Position numbers and translations under genes: made by a program. The notes under the pieces were generated by a model, which saw nothing but the letters and a program-made list of their open reading frames with translations, did not search any database and was not told the origin of the DNA. From Chiloscyllium plagiosum (Eukaryota), in assembly GCF_004010195.1 (NCBI RefSeq), contig NC_057753.1:12170842-12234841 (forward strand): a stretch of 64,000 nucleotides of DNA, read 5' to 3'. Of this stretch, positions 2,961 through 45,658 are shown in pieces (the first letter of the stretch is position 1; each line of letters begins with the position of its first letter).

Positions 2961-3964
2961 TAAGTAAAAATATCATTAGTTATACAATCTAAGCATAGTC
3001 CACACAGTATGGCAGCGGGGCATTTGGCCCACCCAATCTCAGTTGGTCATCACACCAGATCGACCCTCACCCGACATCTCGTGTTGCTAATATTCCTGTC
3101 TGATCCATTATTGGACTGTGGGAGAATTCCGGAGCAAATATAGGAAACTCATGCAGACAGAGGGAAAACTTGTAAATTTCACGCAGACTGTCACCTGAGG
3201 CTGAAATCGAACCTGGCTCTTTGGTGTTTGGAGACAGGAGTGCTAACCGCTGAGCCAGCACAGCGACAGCACGCGAATGCTTCCTTGAATTCATGATTTG
3301 GTATTGCCGCACTCAGAAAGTGTTCATTTCTTGGCGCTGTAAATTTCCTTGAGATCTCGCCAGAGTACGATATAGTCACACTCACTGGGACCGTCTCTAA
3401 CGTGGTCTTCTTGTGAGCTGTTTGAATCATCAAGGCCACTTGCCTTCTCGTTTACTTTTGTGTCATCTATGGTACATTCACTTCAATCAGGATTTGGTTG
3501 GTCTGCTGACATGTATCTCTGCTCTTCCACCATTCCCAGTAAAATGAAGGAGGCTTTACAACAAAACGTTTCCTTTTTCTTTAGAATATTTAGTTGCCTT
3601 GTATGGGCGCTGCTGGCAATGCTCGACATCTGACACACTGCAGGGCATCTGATATAAACACAGCAGTTACGTGTACAATGAGACACGGTAAAGTTAACTA
3701 ATTCCGGTCACAATGGATCGTTTCAGTCAGTGCAGGAGCAAAAACATTTGATTTCACTGTTTCACTCATTGGAAATTTCGTTGCGGAATAAAGACTTGGT
3801 TACGAAGCAGTCTGAAATCGGTGGACGTTGCTCATGAATTTGAAATGCAGGGTCTCGCCTGTTCACAGTATTATACGGAGAAGGAGGCCACGTCTGTTGT
3901 TTTGAGCGGTATCCAGTGAACTGCAACTGGTGTGAGAGTTTGAAGATTGCAATTACTTATCAAC

Positions 3965-3982: not shown

Positions 3983-4241
3983 GAATCCATGATAAATATC
4001 GAAGATGAGGGCTGGAGCAGGGGTGAACTTCCAGACAATGTGAACCACTGTCAGTGTGAGAGGCTTGATACAGAAGCACACACCAAAATTCAGATTCTTC
4101 AGCAACTCTACCAGGTTAAACGTGAGTTCGTCGTCAACCGTGCACTTTTCTAGTTATTTACTTGTATAAGTATAATAATTAATTGCAGTTCATCAACAAA
4201 ACTACATGGACAATTGCTTTCACCAATGTTCTAGCAATCAG

Positions 4242-4578
4242 ATGATGTTCCGAATTTGCAGTGTCCTCCTGCTGATTTCCACTCTGATCTCCGAGGAGGT
4301 GACTGGAGAAGGCGAATTGAAGCAACTTCCTCCCTGGATGGTTGTGACTGAACTGGGAATTGTGTCAATGAATTGCTCTTTTGGCACTACATTTAACACA
4401 GTGCGTTGGTACAGACAGCTCCCGAATCAGCCACCCCAGCATCTGATGATGGCGAAAAGGGAAGCTAACCCATCCGAGAGGATCACCGCTTCGATCAGTG
4501 CAGACGACAAAGTCAGTGTCCTGACTGTGAAAGACGCCAGACTTAATGACACCGCCACTTACCTCTGTGCAGAGAGGG
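4242..4578 (+). CDS. TCR alpha/delta-type V gene segment V2, leader fused to V
   Basis: MMFRICSVLLLISTLISEEVTG-EGELKQLP...NC...WYRQ...DTATYLCAER; open frame; RSS follows. Confidence 0.9.
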
Positions 4579-4617
4579 CACAGTGTCACAACAAGTGGTT
4601 GAGACTGTACTAAAACT
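4579..4617 (+). other. 23-RSS of V2
   Basis: CACAGTG + 23 bp + ACTAAAACT. Confidence 0.92.
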
Positions 4618-8029: not shown

Positions 8030-8630
8030 CAGTTTCTCCCTCGTGTGGACTTGCTGATGTCTCAGAAGGGTGGAATGACTGAATGAATCTCTTCCACACT
8101 TCTGGCAGGTCAATAGAGTTGGCTCAGTTTGATATCACCAAAGTATTTTCTGCCCAGAACGGGAAATGAATCCCTATACTACATCGTTTCTCTGCTTTCG
8201 GAATCCAATTTGAAATAGAACATCCTTTCTTGTCCGTTCTGCTGAATCAGACATTTGAATTAAGGTTTGTCCACACAAGCAAGACAAGTACAGTTTCTCT
8301 TCACTGTGAACGGGGCTTTTTCCTCACATCTTCCAAAATCGACAAATGTTCAAATACTTTAAAATTAGACGTCTTCTCCCAGCTCTGCAAGAATGGTTGA
8401 CTCAATTTTCCATCCGTCTGTAAATTTACATTCCCTCTTCATTGCCTGTGAATTGATTTTAAATAGAAAAGCATCAGAGTGAGGACACTCAAAATTACGA
8501 AGGCAAGTTTTGAAAATGTGATGAAAGAACCTGATCATTTCTGGGGACATTACTAGGAAAACGTGACCAAGAACACCTATCGTATTGCCATTGAATCAGG
8601 AATTGTGAAGTAATACACTGGCCTCTGTAG
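8030..8630 (-). pseudogene. C2H2 zinc-finger gene remnant
   Basis: Minus strand reads VHSEEKLYLSCLCGQT and TCQKCGRDSFSHSTLLRHQQVHTREK; polypyrimidine + CAG acceptor near 8627. Confidence 0.55.
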
Positions 8631-10711
8631 AAAGAGACAAATAGGAGAGGCAGGAGAAGAATAATCGGGTTATTCCTTTCCGACAATAGCACCGGAATGT
8701 TGATAGAATCTCCCAAGCCGTTCACTTCCATCAATCAGAAGGACCAGGGCAGCAGGTCTCACACATTTCACTTCAACGCGCACACTCTCCTGTCTTGCGT
8801 AACATCTAGTACTGGAGATATCGATGACCAGTCACATCAACGAGTTCGTTCCAGGACGGAAAGAAGACCTTCGGCCCAGAGTCAATGCATCAGGTTCAGT
8901 GGCTCTTCTTCAGAACATCTGCATCGTCCCTGCGAGACACATCACCTTCATAACTCAGACATGTTTTTCGGGTGCAAAACAATGCAATGATATTCATACA
9001 AAACTACAGCCTAGTTACAGCAAAGAACGGAGGCCTTTCGATGACGCCTCAGTCCGTGTTACTCTCCCAGTTTATACTGCCTCACCTCGTTCCTCAACAA
9101 AGGTGTTGTTACACAATCTTGACAACAGGGCAGGAAAATGAAACTGCAGTCTCTTAGCTCTGTCATCATAGCTCTGACAGAGTGCAGTTGCCTGATTCAG
9201 GGGATACAATCACTTAATTCCAGCTCTTCTGAAGCAACCTATCTCTTTAGACTTATACTGGTACAGCTTCTTTCATTCAATCAGGGATCTGTTCTCACTT
9301 AACAATAACTTAATGGCGACAGCTTTCACGTAAGCAAAGCGTCTCGGAGTTTCACAGGAATTTCAGGTCATATTTAATCACATGACCGAATGCTTGGCCA
9401 AAGCGATCAGTTGTAGTGAGTGTTTTCAAGGAGGAAAACAAAGTAAAAGGTTTGCAAATATTTTGGGAGAAAATTCTAGGTTTCAGGGTCCAGGCAGCTC
9501 AGCAGGAGGGTATTCGAAATCGGCAATGAAGTGTGTTCGGAATCGGTGTTCTATGCACGTGGGCCCACAGCCAGAAATATGCGGATACTGGAGATCGAAA
9601 CTAATGATATTCAAGTGTTGGAGAGATTCAGCACATCTGGCAGCATTTGTAGAACACGTTTCAAAGGTGAATCTTTGGAATCGGAGCATTAACTATCTCT
9701 GTCTCTGTGAATGCTACCAGCGCTGCCGACTTCCTGATGTGCTTGCTCTTTTAATAAAGGTCTTACAATCTTCTTGTTTATTGACATGTTGTAAAGTGAA
9801 CGCTAGCTGAATCCACCTGTGCAATGGATAGGGATTCACTTTAACAAACTTTTAAAAAGTCCGAATCTCAGTGTTTCACCCAGAAGAGGTTTTAGCAGCG
9901 GTTAAAGGGGAAATAAACAAAGTGCAGTCATAGAACACAAATAGGAACATTCACAAGAGATCACACATCGTTATCTATTGGTAAAATCGTAGATGAAAAA
10001 CATTCAGAATCCACAACCAACGCTAAACCCTCGTCCAGAGAGGAAGAGCAATGATACTTCATCAGACTAATTGTTGGAATGGTCGGATTGTCCCTACAGT
10101 AAACTCCATCTGAATCCTCTACTGTATGGAAGAATGGGCGATAATCTTATTAAAACATGGAAAATCTTTCTCGGGTTAAATTATGACAGCAGTCAGAAAG
10201 GACTGTTGTAGAAACGGTTTGTTTGAATGTCTGAGAAAGTTAATTCATCATGTAAGTTCTGTGCGTTCACCACAACATTCTGACTGGACGATATCATTTT
10301 TGTCATCCTGACCTCAGTTGCATGACTGAGTGTAGCCACGTGCTTTAAGGTTCAGGTATCCTGATCAGATGTTTGACTAGGGTCCCACAGAGGTGCTCAA
10401 CATTAAATAATCACCAGCCCTATTGAATTAACATGAGGTGGGGGTGAGGCAGGGAGTTAAAGAAACTGATGCTGGGGACAGTGGAGTGGGGAACGCTGTT
10501 TTTGACTCCTTGCAGCATCATACCTCCACATTCTTTGTTCAACACATATGACTAAATAAACATGGATCGGGTACCCAGCTCATTACTGCGGGGCCAAGAA
10601 GGATTGCACCATGGCTGACAGAAAATGTCCTCACCTTCAACCCAAACCCCTCCCTTTGTTCATTGCGCGAGTGTGGGAGGTGGCTACATATCTAGTTCAC
10701 AGAGCTTGTGA

Positions 10712-10721
10712 AGTGACATAA
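10712..10721 (+). promoter_or_regulatory. TCR V promoter decamer/CRE-like site
   Basis: AGTGACATAA, a 9/10 match to AGTGAYRTCA, about 200 bp upstream of the NAR-TCR leader. Confidence 0.4.
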
Positions 10722-10919
10722 AACTGTCTGTTCCCTGCTCAAAACCTACTTATTCAAACAGTGCACGCCCAGAGACCTTGATTCCACAGGGCTCATTAAT
10801 CACCTCGTGGACACTGAAAAACAACCCAATTCATCTGAAATGCTTCAGTACAGGTCACGAAAGAAAATCCCAGAATAATTTGTCTTCCCATCATCAAACT
10901 ATCAGCTCCAAACACGGGA

Positions 10920-10965
10920 ATGATGGGCATCCTCCATGGTTTGATCCTGTATGTTGGTTTACCCT
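10920..10965 (+). CDS. NAR-TCR V leader exon
   Basis: MMGILHGLILYVGLP followed by a phase-1 GTGAGT donor. Confidence 0.85.
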
Positions 10966-11114
10966 GTGAGTATCGATCACAGAAACAAACATTGCATGAA
11001 ATTTAAAATACACTGTTGCCGATTTCGTTCACATTACAGGGATGGTCTGCAGTTTTCACTGCGTTGTATCGGTCAGTTCTAATGTCCGCTCATTTCTCTC
11101 TGTTTAATTTCCAG

Positions 11115-11401
11115 GTTATTTCAGTCAGTCAGTGACACAGAGCCCAGTAGCGGTTAATAAGAAGGAGTGTCAGTCTCTCACCATCAACTGTGTTTTTAAA
11201 AGTCGTTCTGTTCATCATTTTGAGAGTGGACATTTCTTTAGACAAACGCGGACAGCAACGGAATGGAAGCGGATCTCCAGTGGTGGGAGATTCGTTATGT
11301 TCACAGATAAAGCACAAAATTTATTTTCGTTGGAAATTCGGGATGTCAGAGTTGAAGACACCGCCACCTATTACTGTAAAGCTCGGTACCGGTACTACAC
11401 A
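11115..11401 (+). CDS. NAR-TCR V (IgNAR-like V domain)
   Basis: TTTCCAG acceptor in phase with the leader. SVTQSP...KECQSLTINC...FFRQ...KRISSGGRF...EDTATYYCKA has VNAR-like short Cys-Cys spacing with no CDR2 and a non-canonical FR1 Cys. RSS at 11402-11439 is CACAGTG + 22 bp + TCAAAAACT. Confidence 0.88.
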
Positions 11402-11741
11402 CACAGTGATGGGCCTCGGCTTCCCGTCGCTCAAAAACTCTCACTGGAGATTGTTACAGAAACAAATTGACAACTGAGCCAATCTGCCCAGAAAATCCCA
11501 CATTTCTGCTTCTCAGCTGCAAGTCAACCAATTTGCAATTAGACTGCATTATTGTTTATAAAATGTGTGTTTCACTGATAACAAGTGCGCTCTGATGGTG
11601 ATGTCTTTTTTCAAGGCTTGTGTGGGTGAATCGAAGTTAGGAATGATTGATCACAATTAAAGGAGACTGACGTGAGAAGTCTAACAACTGGAATCGGGAT
11701 TGCAAATCAGCTGTCATATCCAACTCCCAACAAGCCCTTGG

Positions 11742-11813
11742 AAGTTTTACACAGACTTATAGCACTGTCTCAAGTTGGAGCAAGACACAGTGAAAGGAGC
11801 CAGATCATATACC
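11742..11813 (+). other. NAR-TCR D segment (11770-11785) with 12/12 RSS
   Basis: AAGTTTTAC-12-CACTGTC [TCAAGTTGGAGCAAGA] CACAGTG-12-TCATATACC, midway between V and J. Confidence 0.8.
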
Positions 11814-12125
11814 TCTTTACAATTAAATTACAAATTCTCCGTCCCCAATAGTTAATTGTCAGCTTGAAGTTCACTTCGCTGTAATGCAGGTTGATATCTT
11901 TTCAATCTGCAGCAAGCACTAATTTCTTTACTCGATTCTTCTTCGCTGATATGAAGTGAAAATCAACCTCATGTATTCCTGTGCCATTTGAGAGAAGAAC
12001 AAGAGATTAGCTTGAGCCAAAGCAAACTTGGACACAGAGGACATGGTCTATTTATCTAAATCTCGTGAATAATTAGTTTGTTCAAGCAGCGTGCTGATGA
12101 TTTTTTGATGTTTTGAGGTACCACT

Positions 12126-12214
12126 GGTTCTTGTACGGAGGAGACTGAGAGGAGTATTGCTGTGTTATTATGACCATGTAGATGGATCCGGAACGGCGGT
12201 GACTGTCACAGCTG
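12126..12214 (+). CDS. NAR-TCR J segment (12165-12214) with 23-RSS
   Basis: GGTTCTTGT-23-TGCTGTG, then YYDHVDGSGTAVTVTA and a GTAAGT donor. The DGxGT motif is IgNAR-J-like. Confidence 0.88.
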
Positions 12215-14825
12215 GTAAGTGACTCTGCATTTCATCTTGCTATTCATTATGTTGCTGAACGATCGATTTATTTTTGTTCGTTTAAACGTGAAGAAAGTAA
12301 ACAAATATCTTAGAAAAAAATCGCTTCTGCTCCAATGCCGGAGTTGCGTGTCAGCAGAATATGCGTGTCTGGTCTTTGTTTCCTCAGGCGAAAAAAAAGA
12401 ATGACACCTGGCCCTGAGTCAGCGGTTTCGCTGTACCTGTGGTATCAGTGGCCCAGCGGGTCAATAGAGGGATACCACCAACATGGCGAACAGGTGCTTA
12501 AATGAAGGAGTGCCGACTGTCTGGAATCGATTCTACGAGTTACCTGCGACTGAGGGAGCTCCGTCTGTTGCTTAGGTCTGTGAGAAAGAACTTTGTACCA
12601 GGCAGAGATTCAAGCCCGAATTCCAAAAGTTCAACAAAAACATGTAACTCACGAGAAAATCAGAAATACTACTCAGCGAACCTCAGGTATAAGAGGTCTG
12701 GCTGTATGCCACGATGAATTATCCTATTTGAGGAATGGGTGTCAGGAATGATCGACTTACTATTTCTTTTCAATTCCTTTCATATATGCATTAATCTGAC
12801 CAATCATATTTCCATTTTACCAGCCTCTGAATTAAACGTGAAACTGTGAAGAATTTTGGTTTATTTAATGTAGGTATTTTGAGAAATCGATTTGTTGTAA
12901 TGAAGGTGCTTATTGGAATCAGTTCAAACTGAAGAATGCTCATTCGAGACAGCAAGTAACAATTCATCGAAAGGAATATTTGACAATTTCTGGGGCATCG
13001 ATCAAATTACAACTCCTCATCAAGCTGTTGAGTGAGTCATACAGAGGGAAGGGCTGGAATGGGTTCTAGCCTGAAATGATAGTTAGACATTTGTTCTCCT
13101 TAATTGAGAATGACTCGATTTGGTTTCGAGCAAGTAAAGCTACGCTTCACCAGGCATTCCCTTGGGATAGCGTTATTGTCTTCTGTGAGGGTATTCTGAA
13201 GCCTAAGCTCCATTACTTATCGTTTAAAAGAAGCAGGAGTGTTCTAATTTGAGCATATAGAATTTTAAGGGGTAGACATTAGATGGAATTTTCTCCAAAC
13301 AGGAAAGTCTAACCAACGGTCACAATTTGCGATTCAGGGACAGCAATTTGGACGACGAAGAGCAGAATGTTTTTCAGACGAACAATTGCCTTGAATTATT
13401 GGCATTCTGCATCTCAGAAAGCAGTGGAGACCCAAACGTTAACTGTTTCCACTGGTTCTGTTTTATTGGGGAAAAAACGAAGCATGAAGACACTTCATGA
13501 AAGTCTTAAATACGATGGCCTCGAAACTGGGATGAATGAGACTGAAATGTGAGTAATAGGCCACTAGCAGAACAAATAAAGTAATGAAGGTGAAGAAATG
13601 TGCAAAATGTGGAACTTGCCACAAGAGTAGTTGGAGCACATTGTATTGAGTCATTTATAGAACGTTTTGAAATCACAGGGAGGAGAATGGAATACATCCA
13701 CACAGTGTGTTGAATGGGCAATGTTAATTAGATTTCGGGCAGAAGTGAACTTTGGCATAAATGAACAGCCATAAATCAGTTTGGCTGAATGACCTTGCCT
13801 TCATATTTTAATGTAAAACTGAAAAGATTTCCACCCAGAATACAATAATTCAATCAAAGTAGCTGAAATTGAGGGAGATCTGAAAGATAGTTCCCAGTGT
13901 GCAACAGTCAAACAATCCCAGAAACAGGACAGACAGAACTCAACAGACAGCTGAGGTATTGGTGCAAGTTGCCAGGATTGCAAGAAAACAAAAAGGCGCA
14001 AAGGAAAGTCGAAGAAGAAAGTGACCTGATTGGGGAAAAGTTTGATCAAAAGTCGTGTATGCTCTCATGAACAGAGGAAACGTGCAGACAACGATTGAAC
14101 TAATCGGTGCTGATCAAACCCTATTTTGGATCCTGCTGTGCATGGTGCCGCACCATCGTTTGGTTACTTCTGCGTGGTTAATTTTGCAAATTTATTATAG
14201 AGTCACAGTGTCATGCAATTGATCAGGTTTCCCAAACCAACGTTGTCCATTTGCCTGTGTTTGGCCTGTATCTATTTCAACATTTCCCGCCTGTCATACG
14301 TTTCCAAATGATTTTTACCTGATTTCACTGTACTTGTCTCTAAGGACTTATCACTACACTTGGCAGTTAATTCCATATACGCACCACGCTCTCTGCAAAA
14401 CACTCCCTTTTAAATCATTCCCCTATCACCTTAAACATATGCCCTCCAGCTTCCAAGATAATCACTGGAGTTTGTCTGTCCGCCGAGTATGTGAATGCTG
14501 GCTTCTTCAGAATCTTTTATAATTGTTCCTACTGTACTTGCATTCTCCGCATAGCCCTTCATTGTCCGCCTGATTCAGCTGCTGTTGATTCCCCATTTGA
14601 ACTTTATTGTTAAATCACTTTCCAGCCCCCTTTTTGGCAATTTATTGCACGTCACAAGAAGAAGGTATGTAAAAGAAAGTGTCACCTGAACGCCTCATTT
14701 CTTCATATTCCGATAGAACAGAACAGATTCAAATCTAATGTCAACAAAGCGAACAGAATAATTCCTGTGCTTCGCAATTTATCTTTTCAACAGAGGCTGA
14801 ATAAATGTTCAATATCATCCCGCAG

Positions 14826-15133
14826 GTTTCTTTTCTCTCGTGTCCCAGAGTCCAAACCAACAAACCTCTGCTGTGGGTGACACCATTGCTTTAAGCTGTG
14901 AATACACAGGGTTCTGTCAGTACACAGTTTACTGGTACTGTCAGTCCCCAGGACAAGCTCCGAAATACATGCTTCAAAAATACACCTCAGGAGAGCAGGA
15001 TAAAGAAAATGCTGCAGGCGGGCGAATTTCTGCTCTCATTGATGCTGCGGCGAAAATCGCTTGGTTAATGATCTCGCAAATACAACAAGTGACTCCGCTG
15101 TGTACTACTGTGCACGAAGTGGCGCTCAGCACA
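14826..15133 (+). pseudogene. Leaderless supporting TCRdelta V of NAR-TCR, frameshifted
   Basis: CGCAG acceptor in phase with the J donor. FFSLVSQSP...LSCEYTGFCQYTVYWYCQ carries an extra CDR1 Cys. A 1-nt deletion near 15086 precedes SDSAVYYCARS. RSS at 15134-15172 is CACACTG-23-ACAAAAACC. No ATG-bearing leader exon was found upstream. Confidence 0.82.
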
Positions 15134-15420
15134 CACACTGATACACAGTGCGGAGAGAACTGCACAAAAACCTGAACACGCTGGGAATTACGGACAGTGT
15201 CACAGATCACGGAGACAGCTCAAAATACATGAACATGGGGTGATTGCAGACATAATGATACACAGCACAGAGAAAGCTTTCAAAAAAAAGGCTACTCGTG
15301 GTCGATTATACTGTGATAGTCACAGTACCACAGCACGGAGAAACCTGCACAAGATACTGAACATGGTCAGGTTACAGACAATCAGCGTCACAGAGCGTAG
15401 AGACAGCAGTACAAAATCAT
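15134..15420 (+). repeat. Tandem array of five degenerate RSS-like units (about 60-70 bp period)
   Basis: Recurrent CACAG..(C)GGAGA..(A/T)CAAAA..TGAACA units starting at about 15134, 15193, 15251, 15321 and 15381. Confidence 0.65.
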
Positions 15421-16992
15421 GTTGGCAGAGGCGTGAGGAGCTGGACTCTGAGCTCGGGATTTGGGTGGGTTTGAGCGGGATTGTTTTTATCCAGAATCTG
15501 CCAGATTAAATAGTGCTTTTTGTTTGGCAATGTGCTGTTTATGAAGGAAACATCATATTCACGGGAAGAATTCTAGCTTTATGTAAAGCAGGTCGAACAT
15601 AACTTGTTTCTTCTTTGCAAACTGTTAATAGAAAATCAATCAATTAAGGAGATGGCATGTGACATTTTGCACAAGAGGTGAATAACATGAGCAGATTCGT
15701 CATTAACTCATGTCTTCTAATTGAATTATTATTTGAACGAGAAATGCACGTTGGATTATTGAGAAAAATCAAAAGCTTGAGGACTAACTTAAGGGTCCCA
15801 GCTTCATGGGTGGGGATTGCATGCATATCGAGTAGCATTCCTCTGTGTTGTGTGAATGCGTGGTTTTAGTTTTCATCTTATAATCTTTTCTGAAGAAACA
15901 TAATTCTAAATATACATTCAGACATCAGTGGCACGTTTCATTTCCAAAAAGCATGTTTCTGAGAGAGGCCCACTTCAGTTCTATCAGGAACTGCTCACAG
16001 GAACATTTAACCAAAAGTATAAATTCATTTAAATTGAGCACTGACTGTGAGCGATCAGAAATTTTGACATATCAACAATTTAGGTCATGTTCTATCGGTC
16101 CCTTTTTGTCTATTGTTGGCCATAAGGAGGCTCGATATTATCGATTTCAAACTATTTTGAATGTTCACAGTCAATTTCTTTTTTATTTCTACAAATACTT
16201 TGTTCTCTTTGTGGTTTGTGCCCTCGTGGGAGTTTGTTCCAAAGTCTCTGAGTTGTCGGTTGGTTTCAGTTTGTGTAGGTTCAGATGCGGTTTTACTGTT
16301 CCTCAGTGGGAAATTCCTCTTCAGCGTACATGACCATCCCAATTCCCTCCAGTCAATTGTTTGATTCTCTCCCGTCTTGTCCGGGCCTAGCTTTCTCTGA
16401 ACTTTATATTATAACCAATCTGCAGAGCAGGCGCAGGACATTTACCTAATATGACCCTGCAAATATGTGTGCTTCACATGAACCTCTTTCCACTTTACAA
16501 CGAATGATATATTACCAGTTTTTTTTACTTCCCTGTTCCATCGACTGCTTGCATGAGCGTTTGTATTCTGTTCAAAGGCGCCTTTACAAGAATGCATTTG
16601 CCTTAACATCTCAATTTGTTCTTCTAGTGAACTTTGTCACTGAGTCATGAATAAAAATGGTTTTCCGAATTCATTTCATTTAACAAGGGCATCATTTAAA
16701 GCATCCCTGTTCAGTCACCATCTGTTTCCATGTTTTCTGGAGAAGAGTGATCCAACCTGTTCAAGCACATTTGCAGCCGCAGAATATAGCCCTGTCACTG
16801 AGTGTCTATTACACACGAATGAACGTTTGTGGATGCAGTTCTCATTAAGTTAGTGCCTTTTTACTGGATGTCATCGGATTTCTCGAGCCTTATAAGGAAG
16901 GTCAGCCGCCATCATACCAAATAGCACAGCTGACTCGAGGTTGGACTGCTCTTCTAACGTTTACGTTGATGCACGACCAGTGATAACATATT

Positions 16993-19787: not shown

Positions 19788-21246
19788 ATGCATGGCCCAG
19801 CGAATGTCTCGTTCTATGCCCTGTATTATTCAGCTCTTGCTACTACTGGTGTCCCTGGTAAGTAACAGATTCTAAGTATTTGTTTTTAAGTGCAACAAAG
19901 TATTTTCTATTAAATTTCAGGATCGTCCTTTTTTTCTGATAGTCACCGTTGAAGGGAACAGCCTAGATCACTATGTATATGTAACTATTGAGTTATACTA
20001 ACCTGCACGCGTTTGCAGTGCACAGCAACATTATATCCAAACTGTTATATTGAGCAACTATAGAACAATTGGTTATTGGATTATTGATTTGTGAATTGCA
20101 ATGTGTGGCATTGCATGAATAATAATAATCAGATTAACTGCAAAAAATTAAATTCTATTACGATGCTGGAACCGTCAAGCTGTTGTTTTGTCTATTGTCT
20201 GGAATAATGCACTATCATTGTGTTCGATGTTTCTATGCACAGATACTATGATAATTCTGAAGAAAATTATTGCAGATACGTCATTATTTTAAAGATTAAA
20301 AGTATATCTAGTGATTACTCAAGTCAGTTCAAAATTGGTTTGCAGTTTCCCCCAGCCAACCTGCTGGTGATCGCCATACTATTACGAGGACCATGCGGAT
20401 TCTCTGGGTGCACCACTTTTTACTTGGTGGGGATAGGAGTGAGCGATTTTCTTGTGATCATCACTTGGTGCATCCTGAATCGGATTGGCGACATTTACTT
20501 CCGACACAGTGCCCTGTCCACGACCACTGCCTGCGCAGTCAGCACCGTGATGATCTATACCAGCCGAGATGGCTCAGTCTGGGTAACTGTGACATTCACG
20601 GTTGCCCGTGGTCACCTGCTACCAGAGTCTGAAGGCAAGTTACTGCGCCGAGAAAGCTGCATCACTGGTCATTGGAGTGGTTTGTGCTTTGAGCTGCATC
20701 AAGAAGCCTGCCTTCTGAATTCTTCGCCCAGCCCTTGTGCACTGTGGATGGGGAGTCCTGGTTCTGTGACTTCAGAGACACGTATTACAACTCACCTGCA
20801 TGGACGCCCTATGACTGGCTGAATCACGCCTTGACGCCTATTCTCCCGTTCCTACTTATTCTGCTGCTCAATGCCTTGACTGTCAGATTCATCTTGGCGG
20901 CCAGCAGTGCCCGAAGGAGGCTCCAGGACACAGCAAGCCACGGAGACTCGGAGATGGCCAACCGTAAGAGGTCCATCATATTGCTTTTCACCATCTCGCT
21001 CAGCTTCCTCCTTCTATGGGTCACCATGTCAGGCGCTTCCTCTATGTACGGGTTACTGGTGAGGCATACTTCAGTGGCTTGGACTTCACTGACCCACAGT
21101 TTATTCTCCAAGAAACGATGAACATGCTGTAAATACTAAGTTCCTGCAAAAACGTCTTCATTCATTCAATATCCCAGAACAAGTTCAGAGATGAACTGAA
21201 GAAGGTGTTGTTGTCTCCCTCCACATCTCCCGCTGGGTGCAAATAA
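19788..21246 (+). pseudogene. GPR139/GPR142-like class A GPCR pseudogene (exons 19788-19857 and 20356-~21246)
   Basis: Exon 1 MHGPANVSFYALYYSALATTGVP/GTAAGT. Exon 2 ANLLVIAILLRGPCG...YLVGIGVSDFLV...PFLLILLLNALTVRFILAASSARRRL...RKRSIILLFTIS, with frameshifts and a stop. Confidence 0.8.
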
Positions 21247-21934: not shown

Positions 21935-23800
21935 ACATAGAACATGACAACGCAGTACAGGCCCTTCGGCCCTCGATGTTGCACCGACCTGTCATACCAA
22001 TCTGAAGGAGAAAGTGAGGACTGCAGATGCTGGAGATCAGAGCTGAAAATGTGTTGCTGGAAAAGCGCAGCAGGTCAGGCAGCATCCAGGGANNNNNNNN
22101 NNNNNNNNNNNNNNNNNNNNNNNNNNNNNNNNNNNNNNNNNNNNNNNNNNNNNNNNNNNNNNNNNNNNNNNNNNNNNNNNNNNNNNNNNNNNNNNNNNNN
22201 NNNNNNNNNNNNNNNNNNNNNNNNNNNNNNNNNNNNNNNNNNNNNNNNNNNNTATGCTACCCCCACCTCCCCCCCCCCACCCCCCACCCACCCAACCCCG
22301 TGATCGCCGTCACCAGTCTTGGAAAAAAGCTCTCTCTGTACACCCTTTCTAACCCTCTGATTATCTTATATGTCTCTATTAAATCACCTCTCAACCTTCT
22401 TCTCTCTAAGTAAAACTGCCTCAAGTCCCTCAGCCTTTCCTCGTAAGACCTTCCCTCCATACCAGGCAACATCCTAGTAAATCTCCTCTGCACCCTTTCC
22501 AAAGCTTCCACATCCTTCTTATAATGCGGTGACCAGAACTGTAAACAATACTTCAAGTGCGGCCGTACCAGAGTTTTGTACAACTGTAGCATAACCTCAT
22601 GGTTCCGGAACTCGATTTCTTTATTAATAAAAGCTAAAACACTGTATGCCTTCTTAACAACCCTGTCAACCTGGGTGGAAACTTTCAAGGATCTGTGTAC
22701 CTGGACACCGAGATCTCCCTGCTCATCTACACTACCAAGAATCTTACCATTAGCCCAGGACTTTGCATTCCAGTTACTCCGACCAAAGTGAATCACCTCA
22801 CACTTGTCCGCTTTAAACTCCATTTGCCACCTCTCAGCCCAGCTCTGCAGCTTATCTATATCTCTCCCTTCATCTCTATCCACAACTCCACCGACCTTAA
22901 TGTCGTCTGCAAATTTACTAACCCACCCTTCTACGCCCTCATCCAGATCGTTTATAAAAATGACGAACACCAATGGACCCAACATCGACCCTTGCGGTAC
23001 ACCATTGGTAACTGGACTCCAGGATTAACATTTCCCATCAACCACCACCCTCTGTCTTCTTTCAGCAAGCCAATTACTGATCCAAACTGTTATATCTCCC
23101 ACAATCCCATTCCTCCACATTTTGTACAATAGCCTATTGTGGGGAACCTTACCGAACGTCTTGCTGAAATCCATATACACCACATCAACCGGTTTATTCT
23201 CACCTAACTGTTTGGACACCTTCTCAAAGAACTCAATAAGGTTTGTGAGGCACGACCTACCCTTCACAAAACCGTGCTGACTATCCCTAATCAAATTATT
23301 CTTTTCTAGATGATTATAAATCCTATCTCTTATAACCTTTTCCAACGCTTTACCAACAACTGAAGTGAGGCTCACTGGTCTATAATTAACAGAATTGTCT
23401 CTACTCCCCTTCTTGCACAGGGGAACCACATTTGCTATCCTCCAGCCTTTTGGCACCATTCCTGTAGACAATGACGATTTAAAGATCAATGCCAAAGGCT
23501 CAGCAATCTCCTCCCTGGCTTCCCAGAGGATCCTAGGATAGATCCCATCCGGCCCAGGCGACTCATCTGTTTTCACACTCTGCAGGATTTCTACTACTTC
23601 CTCCTTGTGAACCTCAACCATACCTAGTCGAGGAGCCTGTATCTCAGTAATCTCCTCGACAACATTGGCGTTTTCTAGAGTGAATACTGTCGAAAAATAT
23701 TCATTTAGTGCTTCTCCTATCTCCTCTGACTCCACACAAAACTTCCTAATACTATCCTTGATTGGCTCTAATCTTACTCTCGTCATTCGTTTATTCCTTA
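21935..23800 (-). mobile_element. CR1-like LINE ORF2 (RT), 5'-truncated, spanning the gap at 22093-22252
   Basis: ORFs 23025-23846 and 22257-22985 contain SPGPDGI, NYRPVSLTS, QHGFVKGRSCLTNL and KFADD. The insertion is absent from block B. Confidence 0.92.
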
Positions 23801-23905
23801 AAACAAGCCGAAACGATGTTTTGCTTGTGTTTTCGACAATTAACACAATTGTCAGGTCCTGATTGTCATTTCTCTCCTTTCCCTCTGTGAATATTATGGG
23901 GTAAG

Positions 23906-23922
23906 GACACCATCTGGTGGTG
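23906..23922 (-). promoter_or_regulatory. CTCF-like motif
   Basis: Minus strand reads CACCACCAGATGGTGTC; a paralogous site lies at about 35905-35921. Confidence 0.4.
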
Positions 23923-24093
23923 CATTCAGATAAACTATGTGCGCCGATTTTCAGTCACTGAAATTTAATGTTCTGGTACTAATTCTGCAGTAAAGATTAT
24001 ATTATCATTATGGCAAGCTATTGCTCCTCCATTGTAAGTATTGTGGACATCTTCATTGTTATTTATCTCTTTTGAATGACACTAAATAATTTA

Positions 24094-28197: not shown

Positions 28198-29367
28198 TCA
28201 AATATCTGTGTCATTAAGATTTCCTTGCTATTGAACCTTCTATTTGATTGAACTAAGATACTTGCGGGAAATAATTCAGAAAAAGAAAAACTTGATAATT
28301 TCTTGATGAGCACATGCTCATTATAATTTTTCCAAGGCTAATGGCGAGTCCTCATCCAAATAACCTTTAGTGATACAATTTTCCTACACAGATTTCAATG
28401 ACACTTCTTTTGTGGAAAATGCAGAATTAAAATAAATTTAATATTTAACAACTTTTTCAAAATGGGAGAGATAGGACCAGCTGTCCACTACAATTGCTCT
28501 GATTTTAATCATAAATTTATTAATGCAAGCGGACATTCTTCTGAAAGGAGTGAGATGAATAACTTTCCTTGCTCCAAGAATACGTGAAGAAAAGCGTGTT
28601 TGAAGTTAACTGGCTTGGTTAAACCTGACTGATCTTGCAAGGTGGACCATGGTTCTTAATGGAACCAACACCTCCTTACTGAGGTTTATAAGCGCAGTTA
28701 GTAAATGGTTATGTTTTATTCTGAAGTTAGTAGCCCCACGTTTGGGGAGATGTATAATCTGTCTTAAGTTCTGATAACCTTTTAAACATTTTTGTTACTT
28801 TATTAATGAACAGTAATTCTAATTTATGTAGTCTCAAGACCATTATACATCGTTAAGGAGTCAGATTGGAGCAGATCACCATTTCTTTGGCCTGCTGCAC
28901 ATTGCTTTTAAATTAAATCTCTAATCATTTGACCCACGGTAGCTGTACTGGAAAACTCTGAAGGAACAGTTTTCAAGTATATCTGGTCGGCATGGACGAG
29001 TTGGCTGGAAGGGTTTGTTTCTGTGCTGTGCGCCTCAATGATTCTATGCTCTGTGGTTATGGGTCCCTTAGTACTACCCCATTTACTAAATTTTATTTTA
29101 CGAGCTCTATCTCTTTAATCATTACATTTTTTTCCCATTGGAGCTAATGTTTATTCCAGTGTTACAACGTCAAAGGACTCCGTGCTCTATCTGACTTAGT
29201 TTACATCTAAGTACGCTCTGTAACTCTTACAGTTTCACTAGGCCATGATTGTAATGTGTCTAGTACGTGCCTCCTTGATGACCACACTGAGCACGCAGTT
29301 GTTAAATGCACAAGATCCGATGACTGGTTATGCAATTGCATTGTTTACCGAATCAGCTCCTGTCTCT

Positions 29368-39197: not shown

Positions 39198-39236
39198 AGT
39201 TTTTGTACAGGGTCAGCCCAGTTCTCATTCTCTGTG
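39198..39236 (-). other. 23-RSS of V3
   Basis: Minus strand CACAGAG + 23 bp + ACAAAAACT. Confidence 0.88.
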
Positions 39237-40048
39237 GGACGCAGTGCGCAGTAATACACTGCGGAGTCTGTTTGTTCTGTACTCAACACATTCAGCTTGA
39301 TAGTGCGGTTCACAGGATCAAAATTCCAGGAAAGCCGGCCCAGTAGAAAGCTCCCCTTTTTCTCGCTGTATTGGTCTTTCTGTAGCAGAAACTGCACGGA
39401 TCCGTTGGAAGGTTGACGGTACCAGTACAGGTCAGGATTGCTGCTTGTTGTAGTGTAATTACAGAACAACAGCACATCGTCCCCCTCATTCAGTTTGATT
39501 GCAGCCGGTGTTTGTGAGACTGAATCGCCATGACAAAGTCCTGGAAGAGCCAGGAGTTATACAAAATTAAATAAGACACGACAATATACTTAACGTCCAT
39601 AATTCGCCCATGTATATTCATCAATAAACCGATAAATAAATGAGGGAAGTCAAACTAGATTCCATTTCATATGGGGTGATCATTGCCCATTTCATCTCGC
39701 GAAACCTGTAGCGAAACATGAAAACTGTTGGTGGATATAAAACTATCCCCTCGGTAAAATCATCTAAATTGCCTTAGTCCTGCCTGGATTTACACCCTGA
39801 CTTTTCCATTGCCAATGGCTCATCTACATTCGCTAATTTCTGTCAGACTCTGCTCATTGTTGGGGCAAGTTTAGATCCAGATTTTTTTTTTAATTGGGAG
39901 AAAGTATTGTTGCTTCTATGTTGCGCAAGGTGCTTGAATAAAATTCAATTCTCAGCAAAGAGCTGAAGCACATACATAGACAGGTGTTCAACCTACCAGT
40001 TAGAAGAGCTGCAGTTGCGAGGAGTAATCCCAGAGCTCCTGGTAACAT
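39237..40048 (-). CDS. Conventional two-exon TCR alpha/delta V gene V3 (leader 39997-40048, V exon 39237-39540)
   Basis: Leader MLPGALGLLLATAALLT/GTAGG and acceptor TTCCAG. V exon GLCHGDSVSQTP...FCNYTTTSSNPDLYWYRQ...DSAVYYCALRP is an open frame. Confidence 0.9.
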
Positions 40049-42570
40049 GTTTGCAGAGAGTTCACGGTGAATGTGAACAGAACTGGCTGAAGCTAAAATG
40101 GTTCTCGTCAAGAGTTGGGTAATTCAGGTTGAGTAATTTCCGGACCTCTGCTCGTTGGACCATTGTTGGCAAAGGCATCGTGTGAAAGCCAATGAGTACC
40201 AGGCTCCTTTGTTCTTCAGATGAGCCAATCAGCTTCAAGCTCATTTGAGCCCCACTTCATATTATGATTGATGTGATAAACTAACAAAGTTCAGAATACG
40301 GGTTACTGGATCTGGAAAGTTCACTCAGTTTTCTCATCACAGTTGCTGCCAGACCTGCGCCATTCTCCGGTTGTTTGTTTTTGTCTTGGATTTCCAGCAA
40401 CTGCGGTTCTTTGTTATTTTTGTTTCACCAACTGGCGTGATTAGAATCAGGTGGATCTCATTGACTATGAGTTCTTTCATTGGGATTGTTAAATCGATGG
40501 AGCCCTGGGCAAAAGGTAAACATACGAGATTTTGAGTCGCCTCACATCAGAGACAGACTCCAAACAGACTAGCCATGGCCAGTGTCCTGTCCACATATAA
40601 ATGAAGGGTGACCTGGTGACTAAATTTCAGTCTCTGTGCAGTTATTTCAAGAGCAAAGTAAATTTGTTCATCTATAAACAATGGTAAGGACAGAGATTAA
40701 ACCAAACGTTGTCCCACATCCATTATTATTTCTGTAAGCATTTATACAAATGGGAATTCGTTCATCCTGTTCGAGTATGAGAACTGTTGGTCTTAGACAG
40801 TCCCATTAGCTGATGCGTAGGACCAGTGAGTCTGGGACATTCTGATATAATCATGAGGAAATAAATAAATAAAATTTAAAAAAATGTTACAGTACAATCG
40901 AATGATGCATTTCCTGGTATGATACGTTGCAACTGCCTTTCATTAACTTTACTTTGTGCCATCGTAAACATAACTCCTGCATGAGTATCAAATACGCTGC
41001 AGTGCATCAAACACACAGCTCACCGCCACATTGTCTCAGATTATACAAGACTAACTGATTTCTCACAGAAAACAAAAGATAATCTGTCAATTCATTTGAT
41101 TGGGAATGGTGAAAGGGCAGAGGTGCATGCTTACGCAAATTCCAAATCCTGACTAATGTCAGTGTATGATTACCAGGTTTGCAAGTGACACGAAAATAAG
41201 TAACATGGCAATTGGTAATGATTATGACTTAAAGAGTCTCTTGAAAGACAAAGTCACAGACTGTTTCAAAGAGTGTCACTATACCATACTCGGGCGAGAT
41301 CTCCAGGAAATTTTCAAAAAAGAAATAAACAATTCATGAGTGGGAGGAAAAGCAAATCGTGAATTTTCATCTGCCATTCTCAAGATGATGGCACGGTGGC
41401 TCAGTGGTAAGCACTCGTGTTTCTTAAAACCAAAGACCCACGTTCGATTTCAGCCTCAGGTGGCTGTCATAATGGGGCCTGCACGTTCTCTCTATCTCTG
41501 CATGGGTTTCCTGTGGTTTTTCTGTTTTCCTCGCACAGTCCAAAGGCGGGCAGCTTAGGTAACTTAGATGTGGGAGATGCAGGGGGATGTTGTATCTAGA
41601 TGTGATGTTCTTCAGATGCTTGGTGTGGTCTCGATGGACCGAATGGCGTGCATCCACGCTGCAGGCATTCTGTGGTTAGATTGTTTATATATTGACCTTT
41701 ATTAAATGTCGTTGTTGGCAGGCTGTAGGCACAGCTGTCTGGCCAGCATTTATTACCTGTCCGAAGTTGTTCTTGTGAAGGTGGGAGTGAGCTGCCTTAT
41801 TAAACTGCGGCAGTTCACCTGCTCTGGGTTGACCTACAATGCCATTGGGGGGACGGAATTATCCGTTTTTGAACAAGTGAATTCCGATCAATGCTCTGCC
41901 AATCAAACAGGCTGCATTGTCCTGGGTGGTGTCAAGAATCTAAAGAGTTGTTGGAGCTGCACCCATCCAGACAATTAGTGAGTATTCCATCACAACACTG
42001 AGTTGGGCTTTGTAGATGATGGACTGGCTTTCGGGAGACAGGAAGTATATGTAACTCCCCGCATTAATCCTAGTCACTGACCTGCTCTTGTTGCTCCTGC
42101 GTTTCCGTGTTGTGCCCAGTTGAGTTTTTAATCATTAAAACCCGCACGAAGTAGACAGTGTCAGTTTCGGTGAAGTTAACGTGGCGTTAAAGGACATGCC
42201 ACTATTTTACCTTCATGTTTCCTCCAACCGTGATTTGACCCGATCTTTCACATCATCCTTGTTATTTTTCTCTTTCTTCCGTTTCTTCTTCAACCGTTTC
42301 TCATCGTTCTGCCTTCTGCAAGTATTATTAAAGTATCTCTCCACTTTTCCTTTTCTCCATCACTCTTTCAGTTTTGCAAACAAGTACTTCCTTCACCTCC
42401 ATCCCCAAACCCAATTGTCCTCACTTCTGACTATCTCTAATTTAATCTGTTCCATACTTTCTGGTGTATTTTGCTCACTTTTCCATTATTTTCCATTTTT
42501 CTTGGTTGGTGTCAGAATTAGTTGCAAAGAAACTTCAAAAGTAAGCATACTGGAACTCCCATTCTGTGCT

Positions 42571-42609
42571 GGTTTTAGTACGCGCTCTCCATCTGTTTGT
42601 AACACTGTG
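42571..42609 (-). other. 23-RSS of V4
   Basis: Minus strand CACAGTG + 23 bp + ACTAAAACC. Confidence 0.92.
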
Positions 42610-42943
42610 CCTTCATTACACAGAGATAGATTGCAGTGTCATTCAGTCTGGCGTCTTTCACAGTCAGTGTACTGAGTTTGTAGTCTCCACTGATTGAAGC
42701 AGTGATCCTCTCGGGCTGATCATTTTCCGTTTTGGCCGTCACCAGATGCTGGGGTGGCTGATTCGGGACCTGTCTATACCAATGCATTGCGTTGGACATC
42801 GTGGCAATCGAGCAATTCATGGACACAATTCCCACTTCACGAACAACCATCCACGAAGGACGTTGCGTGACATCGCCTTCTCCAGTCACATCCCTGGAGG
42901 TCAGAGTGGAAAACATCAGGAGGATTCTGCAAATTCGGAACAT
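42610..42943 (-). CDS. TCR alpha/delta-type V gene segment V4, leader fused to V
   Basis: MFRICRILLMFSTLTSRDVTG-EGDVTQRP...WYRQ...DTAIYLCVMK; closest paralog of V1. Confidence 0.9.
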
Positions 42944-45032: not shown

Positions 45033-45285
45033 CTGCCCACTGCAAGTATTATTAAAGTATCTCTATACTTTCTTTTCTCTCTATCATTTTTCTGATTTCC
45101 AAATATACACTTCCTTCACCCCCATCCGTATATCCAATTGTCTTCACTGCTGACCATCTTTAACTTTAGCTGCTCCACACTTTCAGATGTATTTTGTTCG
45201 CATCTCCCATATCTCGGCTTTTGGGGCACAGAATTAGTAACAAATATACTTCAAAATCAACATATTGGAGCTCCCAATCTATGCA

Positions 45286-45324
45286 GGTTTTAGTACACGC
45301 TGTCAAGCTGCTGGTGACACTGTG
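45286..45324 (-). other. 23-RSS of V5
   Basis: Minus strand CACAGTG + 23 bp + ACTAAAACC. Confidence 0.92.
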
Positions 45325-45658
45325 CCTTCATTGCACAGAGGTAGGTAGCGGTGTCATTAATTCTGGTGTCTTTGACAGTCAGGGTACTGGTTTTGTAATC
45401 TCCACTGATTGAAGCGGTGATCCTCTTAGGCTGATCATCATCACTTTTAGCCATCACCAGATACTGGGGTGGCTGATCAGGGAGCTGTCTATACCAATGC
45501 ACGTTGGTAGTTGTTCTTGCAAAAGAGCAATTCATGGACACAATGCCCATTTCACGAACAACCATCCAACGGGGGAGTTGCTTCACTTCACCTTCTCCGG
45601 TCACCTCCGTGGCCATCAGAGTGGAAAACATCAGGAGGATTCTGAAAATTTGGAACAT
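45325..45658 (-). CDS. TCR alpha/delta-type V gene segment V5, leader fused to V
   Basis: MFQIFRILLMFSTLMATEVTG-EGEVKQLP...WYRQ...DTATYLCAMK. Confidence 0.9.

Follow-up and report, generated by a model that had tools for sequence, protein, structure and literature searches.

We wondered whether a stretch of the Chiloscyllium plagiosum genome that holds all the parts of an NAR-TCR cassette could still give rise to a receptor chain. NAR-TCR has been known since 2006. It is described as a doubly rearranging T cell receptor (TCR) delta chain of nurse shark and elephant shark (PMC1845163, PMC5931798, PMC12227049, PMC6795676) and is reported as mapped in several shark genomes (PMC12227049). The stretch analyzed here, referred to as the window, comprises 64,000 nucleotides (C44:12170842-12234841, C44 being the contig that carries it, NC_057753.1). 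The cassette lies on its plus strand and, unless a contig is named, positions are those of the window. A sequence-only reading had called the cassette complete. Every part is indeed there, but a frameshift at about 15085 and a changed heptamer letter at 11769 mean that it is not intact as assembled. The reading that we favour, with moderate confidence, is that of a germline NAR-TCR cassette with two breaks as assembled, probably a null allele, at a locus where other animals have an open supporting V.

Layout and identity of the cassette

The cassette begins with the leader exon of the NAR-TCR V (10920-10965, plus strand; MMGILHGLILYVGLP), which ends in a phase-1 GT donor. Contigs of the sequencing runs X3, X9 and X19 splice it to the V exon (10965>11115, GT..AG). 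This exon (11115-11401, plus) is open, matches Pfam V-set, carries a cysteine in the a-b loop (KKECQS) and has F for the canonical W (GHFFRQ). It is followed by a recombination signal sequence (RSS) with a 22-bp spacer (11402-11439, plus; CACAGTG-22-TCAAAAACT). A single D segment of 16 nt (11770-11785, plus) sits between two signals with 12-bp spacers, the 5' one on the minus strand (11742-11769; heptamer damaged at 11769) and the 3' one on the plus strand (11786-11813). The J segment (12165-12214, plus; YYDHVDGSGTAVTVTA), in which D-G-x-G replaces F/W-G-x-G, is preceded by a 23-bp-spacer RSS (12126-12164, minus) and ends in a phase-1 GTAAGT donor. The gaps within the V-D-J part measure 368 and 379 bp. 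A phase-1 intron of 2611 bp separates J from a leaderless supporting V-delta (14826-15133, plus), which has a phase-1 acceptor at 14826, a cysteine in complementarity determining region 1 (CDR1; GFCQY) and a frameshift in framework region 3 at about 15085. Its RSS has a 23-bp spacer (15134-15172, plus; CACACTG / ACAAAAACC), and another perfect heptamer, at 15144, uses the same nonamer with a 13-bp spacer. The chain of V RSS, D 3' RSS and J RSS arose in none of 300 single-letter shuffles of 10001-16000; the shuffles averaged 0.02-0.03 matches per RSS class as compared to 2, 1, 1 and 0 observed, the 0 being the damaged D 5' signal. Leader, V with its 22-bp-spacer RSS, J with its 23-bp-spacer RSS, the leaderless V 2.6 kb further on with its own 23-bp-spacer RSS and both extra cysteines (KKECQS and GFCQY) thus all lie where they had been placed before. 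The proposed 12/12 flanking of D stands as far as the spacers on both sides are concerned, but not for the 5' heptamer, which lacks CAC.

In an intact cassette, RAG would connect D, by its two 12-bp-spacer signals, with V (22) on one side and J (23) on the other, as seen for a sister cassette described below. The leader would be spliced to V, as observed here, and J to the leaderless supporting V, as observed for the sister. Judging by its signals, the supporting V would join separately, via its 23-bp-spacer RSS, to a D-J-C-delta block at a distance of 2.37 Mb. This would yield a TCR-delta chain of three domains, in which the NAR V would bind antigen alone, with a probable Cys-Cys tie to the supporting V. 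Both single-domain antigen binding and the disulfide are models set out in the literature (PMC3457774, PMC6795676, PMC1845163), where the interdomain disulfide between NAR V and supporting V is called 'putative' (PMC1845163).

Two changes interfere with this scheme. The D 5' heptamer (11763-11769) reads CACTGTC in the window and CACTGTG in the sister cassettes on the small contigs C95439 and C75653, so that its working strand is left without CAC. RAG joining requires the heptamer CAC; on the assembled haplotype its loss should block V-to-D joining, and direct V-J joining would violate the 12/23 rule. In the supporting V, DSAVYYC lies in a different frame from the rest of the exon. One base is missing within a CC pair at about 15085, where the copy on C95439 has one more base. 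The frameshift removes the second canonical cysteine; as no stop precedes the RSS, a junction could restore the J frame, with a domain that would likely misfold. As assembled, the cassette lacks both the open frame and the CAC heptamer that a functional NAR-TCR cassette requires.

The best PDB sequence matches of the first V are VNARs (8hgi, 2ywy and others; E 6e-17). In a tree of 63 rows it belongs to a clade of 26 NAR-type and four IgNAR-type Vs (100/99), apart from 12 conventional TCR Vs, and the second V belongs, on the TCR V side, to a separate clade made up of 21 supporting Vs (97/89). The tree is built on 98 columns and carries a long-branch warning; 29 of 85 relatives were chosen for it and, compared to an earlier tree, 18 near-duplicate rows were dropped and two IgNAR-type rows added. 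We named the four rows IgNAR-type ourselves, on account of their YWY motif and VNAR likeness. These matches and the tree positions of both Vs bear out the earlier NAR-TCR identification, and in the phylogenetic check proposed with it the first V clusters with IgNAR V and not with conventional TCR V, in a tree without named nurse shark rows.

The marks given for NAR-TCR are a leader on the NAR V, its a-b loop cysteine, the lost W of WYRK, a supporting V without leader and the cysteine in the CDR1 of the latter (PMC1845163). All five are present in the cassette. The 85 relatives, which belong to sharks, sawfish, skates and rays, were picked by likeness to the query and are mostly predicted gene models. 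The a-b loop cysteine is found in 78 of 82 aligned (three are not aligned there and one has F) and F replaces the canonical W in 80 of 82 (one L, one not aligned). The supporting-V CDR1 cysteine is shared by 75 of 78. Both V domains stand within one gene model in 73 relatives, 70 of which have the two cysteines together and three only one of them. A further cysteine in framework region 2 of the supporting V (WYCQ, 14938-14940) is present in 6 of 78 relatives. Upstream of the supporting V (14101-14826) there are eight ATGs, the nearest three of which open just short polar peptides, and two hydrophobic stretches further upstream, at 14213 and 14495, do not look like leader exons by eye. Bamboo and epaulette sharks hold the nearest named relatives (87% over 96% of V; 93% over 62%). 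None of the 81 displayed names among the 85 relatives, four of which are unnamed, contains 'NAR-TCR' in the name text listed; the remark that automated annotation overlooks such genes holds here.

Predicted folds of the relatives P0007 and P0039 (predicted local distance difference test, pLDDT, 65 and 78) are Ig domains, and a complex prediction for the two V domains of P0039 scored 0.03, which gives no answer. The top Foldseek matches listed are engineered double-V antibodies, antigen-binding fragments (Fabs) and single-chain variable fragments (scFvs), and no NAR-TCR structure was among the 60 of 143 sequence matches listed.

Rearrangement, constant region and sister cassettes

No record marks X9, X16 and X19 as RNA, but these runs behave like RNA in that they contain spliced contigs. 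The X9 contig that splices leader to V has no difference from the window, including at 10817, where C95439 differs, and window-type intron contigs are present in X9 and X19. Record 3 of X16 (399 nt, depth 5.8) contains a V end, 25 letters, J and then the splice into a C95439-type supporting V. Read by hand, the 25 letters comprise six of the germline V end of C75653, four untemplated, 12 of the D of C75653 and three untemplated, and the J carries the two differences expected of C75653. The junction is in frame with J and, again read by hand, holds an in-frame TGA. This record is a V-D-J rearrangement plus splicing of the sister cassette, and it is non-productive. Splicing of J to the supporting V, suggested earlier as a check at 12214-to-14826, was accordingly seen for the sister cassette but not for the window copy. 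The 3' half of the supporting V is covered in X9, X16 and X19 by sister-type contigs only, and the uncovered stretch is no sign of silence. X21 (single-cell, 2% sampled) gave five matching reads, all on a repeat. No run contig contained the second V(D)J event that joins supporting V to D-J, and no transcript spliced to C-delta was among the run contigs.

Where could the supporting V find its constant region? No C exon was detected within 276 kb around the cassette using tblastn with C-bearing relatives, the C queries being of TCR type. A single C exon matching that of related V-V-C gene models lies at C44:14569300 on the plus strand, and three gene models of another shark (P0029, P0036, P0039) have V-V-J-C joined. 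This exon is preceded by a D at 14552209-14552229, flanked by 12- and 23-bp-spacer signals, and by ten J motifs, and 59 further J motifs follow it; C exon, D and preceding J motifs span 14.552-14.570 Mb of C44. This is how a TCR delta locus with alpha J segments behind it is laid out, and the C exon is likely C-delta. The 23-bp-spacer RSS of the supporting V is compatible with the 12-bp-spacer RSS of this D, 2.37 Mb away.

A search with the NAR V returned at least 19 matches: ten on C44 at 12.2-13.7 Mb, five on small contigs and four IgNAR-type Vs at C44 0.56-1.22 Mb. The nine other matches at 12.2-13.7 Mb are on the minus strand; the window cassette and the D-J-C block are on the plus strand. 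Within the gap-free stretch that holds D-J-C (L087-L094, C44:14496000-14570000), the last five conventional Vs, at 14.497-14.517 Mb, are likewise on the minus strand and point away from the D-J-C block; a V at 14522966 faces towards it. As most of the V field is opposite in strand to D-J-C, rearrangement there would be by inversion. The strand of the cassette may be a scaffolding choice, since its piece sits between 500-N gaps.

Stops or frame breaks interrupt the V in five of the nine other C44 copies (L010, L012, L015, L016, L019); in one more, L011, the alignment has a gap. The remaining three are open (L006, L007, L009), two of them with an open supporting V 4-6 kb further on, and the cassette on C95439 is intact in all parts checked. 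Just past the window, at C44:12238099, L006 (L026) combines an open NAR V with a J; no supporting V was found in L026 or at the right end of the window. Some 4 Mb away from the TCR V field lies a decayed, supporting-V-like orphan (L107, C44:7916290-7916644), with no NAR V match in 15 kb of sequence covering it.

Origin of the two breaks

Do other animals share the breaks? Three same-species runs (X1, X2 and X3; three samples from two studies, with library kind guessed or unrecorded) cover the supporting V, and in all three every contig over 15085 has the extra base. Window-type contigs carry a C there, which leaves the frame open (depth 26.3, 7.33 and 7.75 in X1, X2 and X3), and sister-type contigs carry a T (depth 83, 11.9 and 18.3); in each run the two depths sum to full depth at this position. 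The sister-to-window ratios of 3.2, 1.6 and 2.4, with both supporting-V types in 3/3 runs, fit alleles or paralogues alike. Window-type contigs differ from the window at 2 of 360 letters in X1 and 8 of 666 in X2. At 11769 the single covering contig in each of four runs reads G, and the heptamer defect is found in no contig covering it. In X3 this contig has a depth of 23.3, matching that of the window-type intron contigs (20.8-29.6), and no C95439-type contig at 13252-13533 was among the X3 contigs listed; together these hint that the good heptamer is linked to the window locus. The NAR V exon (11118-11352) also varies between animals, with 13 differences in X2 contigs (the same listed letters in X1) and none in X3.

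The observation that the missing base is supplied in every same-species run and that the heptamer defect is seen in none could also mean that the cassette is intact in the assembled animal and that one or both breaks are assembly errors. The region is gappy, with four N runs in the window, and near-identical sister contigs could confuse a consensus. Two independent errors would be needed, however, at two critical places, and the window also differs from C95439 and all four runs at 11510, 11965, 12709 and 12712, private substitutions that look like a real haplotype. These four letters, and the presence of both disabling changes on a single haplotype, make a real null allele likelier than error, and we regard assembly error as possible but rather doubtful. 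A decaying pseudo-cassette found throughout the species, with the frameshift as a later hit in one lineage, appears improbable to us. The ratio of nonsynonymous to synonymous substitution rates against the sister supporting V (0.68, based on few changes; eight other pairs 0.33-0.59) and the broken Vs elsewhere on C44 would suit it, but the supporting V frame is open in all three runs, and the X9 leader-V contig without differences and the window-type intron contigs in X9 and X19 speak against such decay.

Hardly any weight is left for the idea of a stray IgNAR cluster or of two unrelated V genes that happen to lie side by side. The first V does resemble VNAR, and in the earlier tree, which had one mistranslated row, IgNAR was nested inside the NAR V group. 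Against this stand one D in place of the three of IgNAR (PMC4279169), F for W, the a-b loop cysteine, the lack of a C exon match by tblastn with C-bearing relatives in the 276 kb around the cassette and the 73 relatives with both Vs in one gene model; IgNAR-type Vs are found elsewhere, at 0.56-1.22 Mb of C44. The V-D-J-supporting-V contig of X16 largely refutes this reading.

Several points weigh against a null allele of an NAR-TCR locus, or against the names on which this reading builds. The breaks are read from the assembly and no reads of the assembled animal were identified, so error may lie behind them; the missing base also belongs to a CC pair. The run contigs are filtered and short, and the link between the good heptamer and the window supporting V is a hint from depth. 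The sole V-D-J-V contig derives from the sister cassette and has a stop in its junction. The tree rows include no named nurse shark NAR-TCR type sequence. Finally, relatives are named 'T cell receptor alpha chain ...-like' in their sources; we take the C exon to be likely C-delta from its position and a transmembrane motif.

Comparison of the window with its sister raises a further idea. The NAR V protein is identical in the window and on C95439, and the supporting Vs are only 79% identical. Identity per 200 bp is 93.5-100% over 8400-13400 and falls to 75-91% beyond, where the supporting Vs differ. In X19 one contig has the window leader joined to a V of C75653 type (11 of the 12 letters listed), and an X3 contig (record 31) combines a window-type 5' part with a sister-type 3' part; both mosaics could be chimeric contigs instead. 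We tentatively propose that bamboo-shark NAR-TCR cassettes swap leader, NAR V and supporting V in the germline, through gene conversion or unequal exchange, and that null alleles segregate among them, such that V pairing would be unfixed and differ between animals. About 11 kb beyond the last match, C95439:14274-15368 resembles window 28198-29298 (95.7%), so some 11 kb of the window are missing from the contig.

Relation to known systems and other features of the window

The cassette is a new instance of a known system that was rightly named before and is broken as assembled. With NAR-TCR it shares the leader and NAR-type V, the a-b loop cysteine, the absence of the canonical W, its own V-D-J, the leaderless supporting V-delta with a CDR1 cysteine and the place in the TCR alpha/delta V field. 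It differs in the frameshift, the damaged D heptamer, the framework 2 cysteine and five stacked, degenerate RSS-like units about 60 bp apart (15136-15407, plus), of which units 1 and 4 only keep CAC plus a 21-23-bp spacer. Behind the supporting Vs of C95439, L041 and L045 there are extra signals with 22-23-bp spacers as well, and a second signal was found behind one of two conventional Vs checked. IgNAR V belongs to the same V lineage, but IgNAR, which has three D segments and C exons of its own, keeps the W of the WY motif (PMC4279169). Mammalian TCR-mu of marsupials and monotremes is described as likewise having three extracellular domains, with an unpaired N-terminal V on a supporting V (PMC3457774, PMC7615758); it differs by VH-like V genes in their own clusters with their own C, and the likeness is regarded as convergent.

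By itself the finding is of little importance, and its practical value lies in annotation. Public gene sets carry such units under the names 'uncharacterized', 'DSCAM-like', 'lachesin-like' or 'Ig chain-like', and, depending on the animal read, the window copy would wrongly be counted as functional or as a pseudogene. The ligand of NAR-TCR is described as unknown (PMC7615758). Our finding gives no better handle on it, and the intact sister cassettes in a shark of aquarium size are usable material.

The window holds further V genes. One short conventional TCR V family has four members, at about 940-1315 and 4240-4617 on the plus strand and at 42570-42940 and 45285-45635 on the minus strand, with the leader in the same exon, 23-bp-spacer RSSs and opposite strands in different contig pieces. 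Another conventional TCR V (39198-39610, minus) has a leader, an open frame and a 23-bp-spacer RSS, with a second 22-bp signal 116 bp downstream. A degenerate V-like stretch at about 3420-3750, judged by eye, ends at a 22-bp RSS-like site at 3709. Fragments of a rhodopsin-type seven-transmembrane receptor in two frames (20208-21120, plus; Pfam 7tm_1, E 0.0003, under the cut-off) likely represent a pseudogene, and reverse transcriptase fragments of a long interspersed nuclear element, also in two frames, are found at 22260-23954 on the minus strand (Pfam RVT_1).

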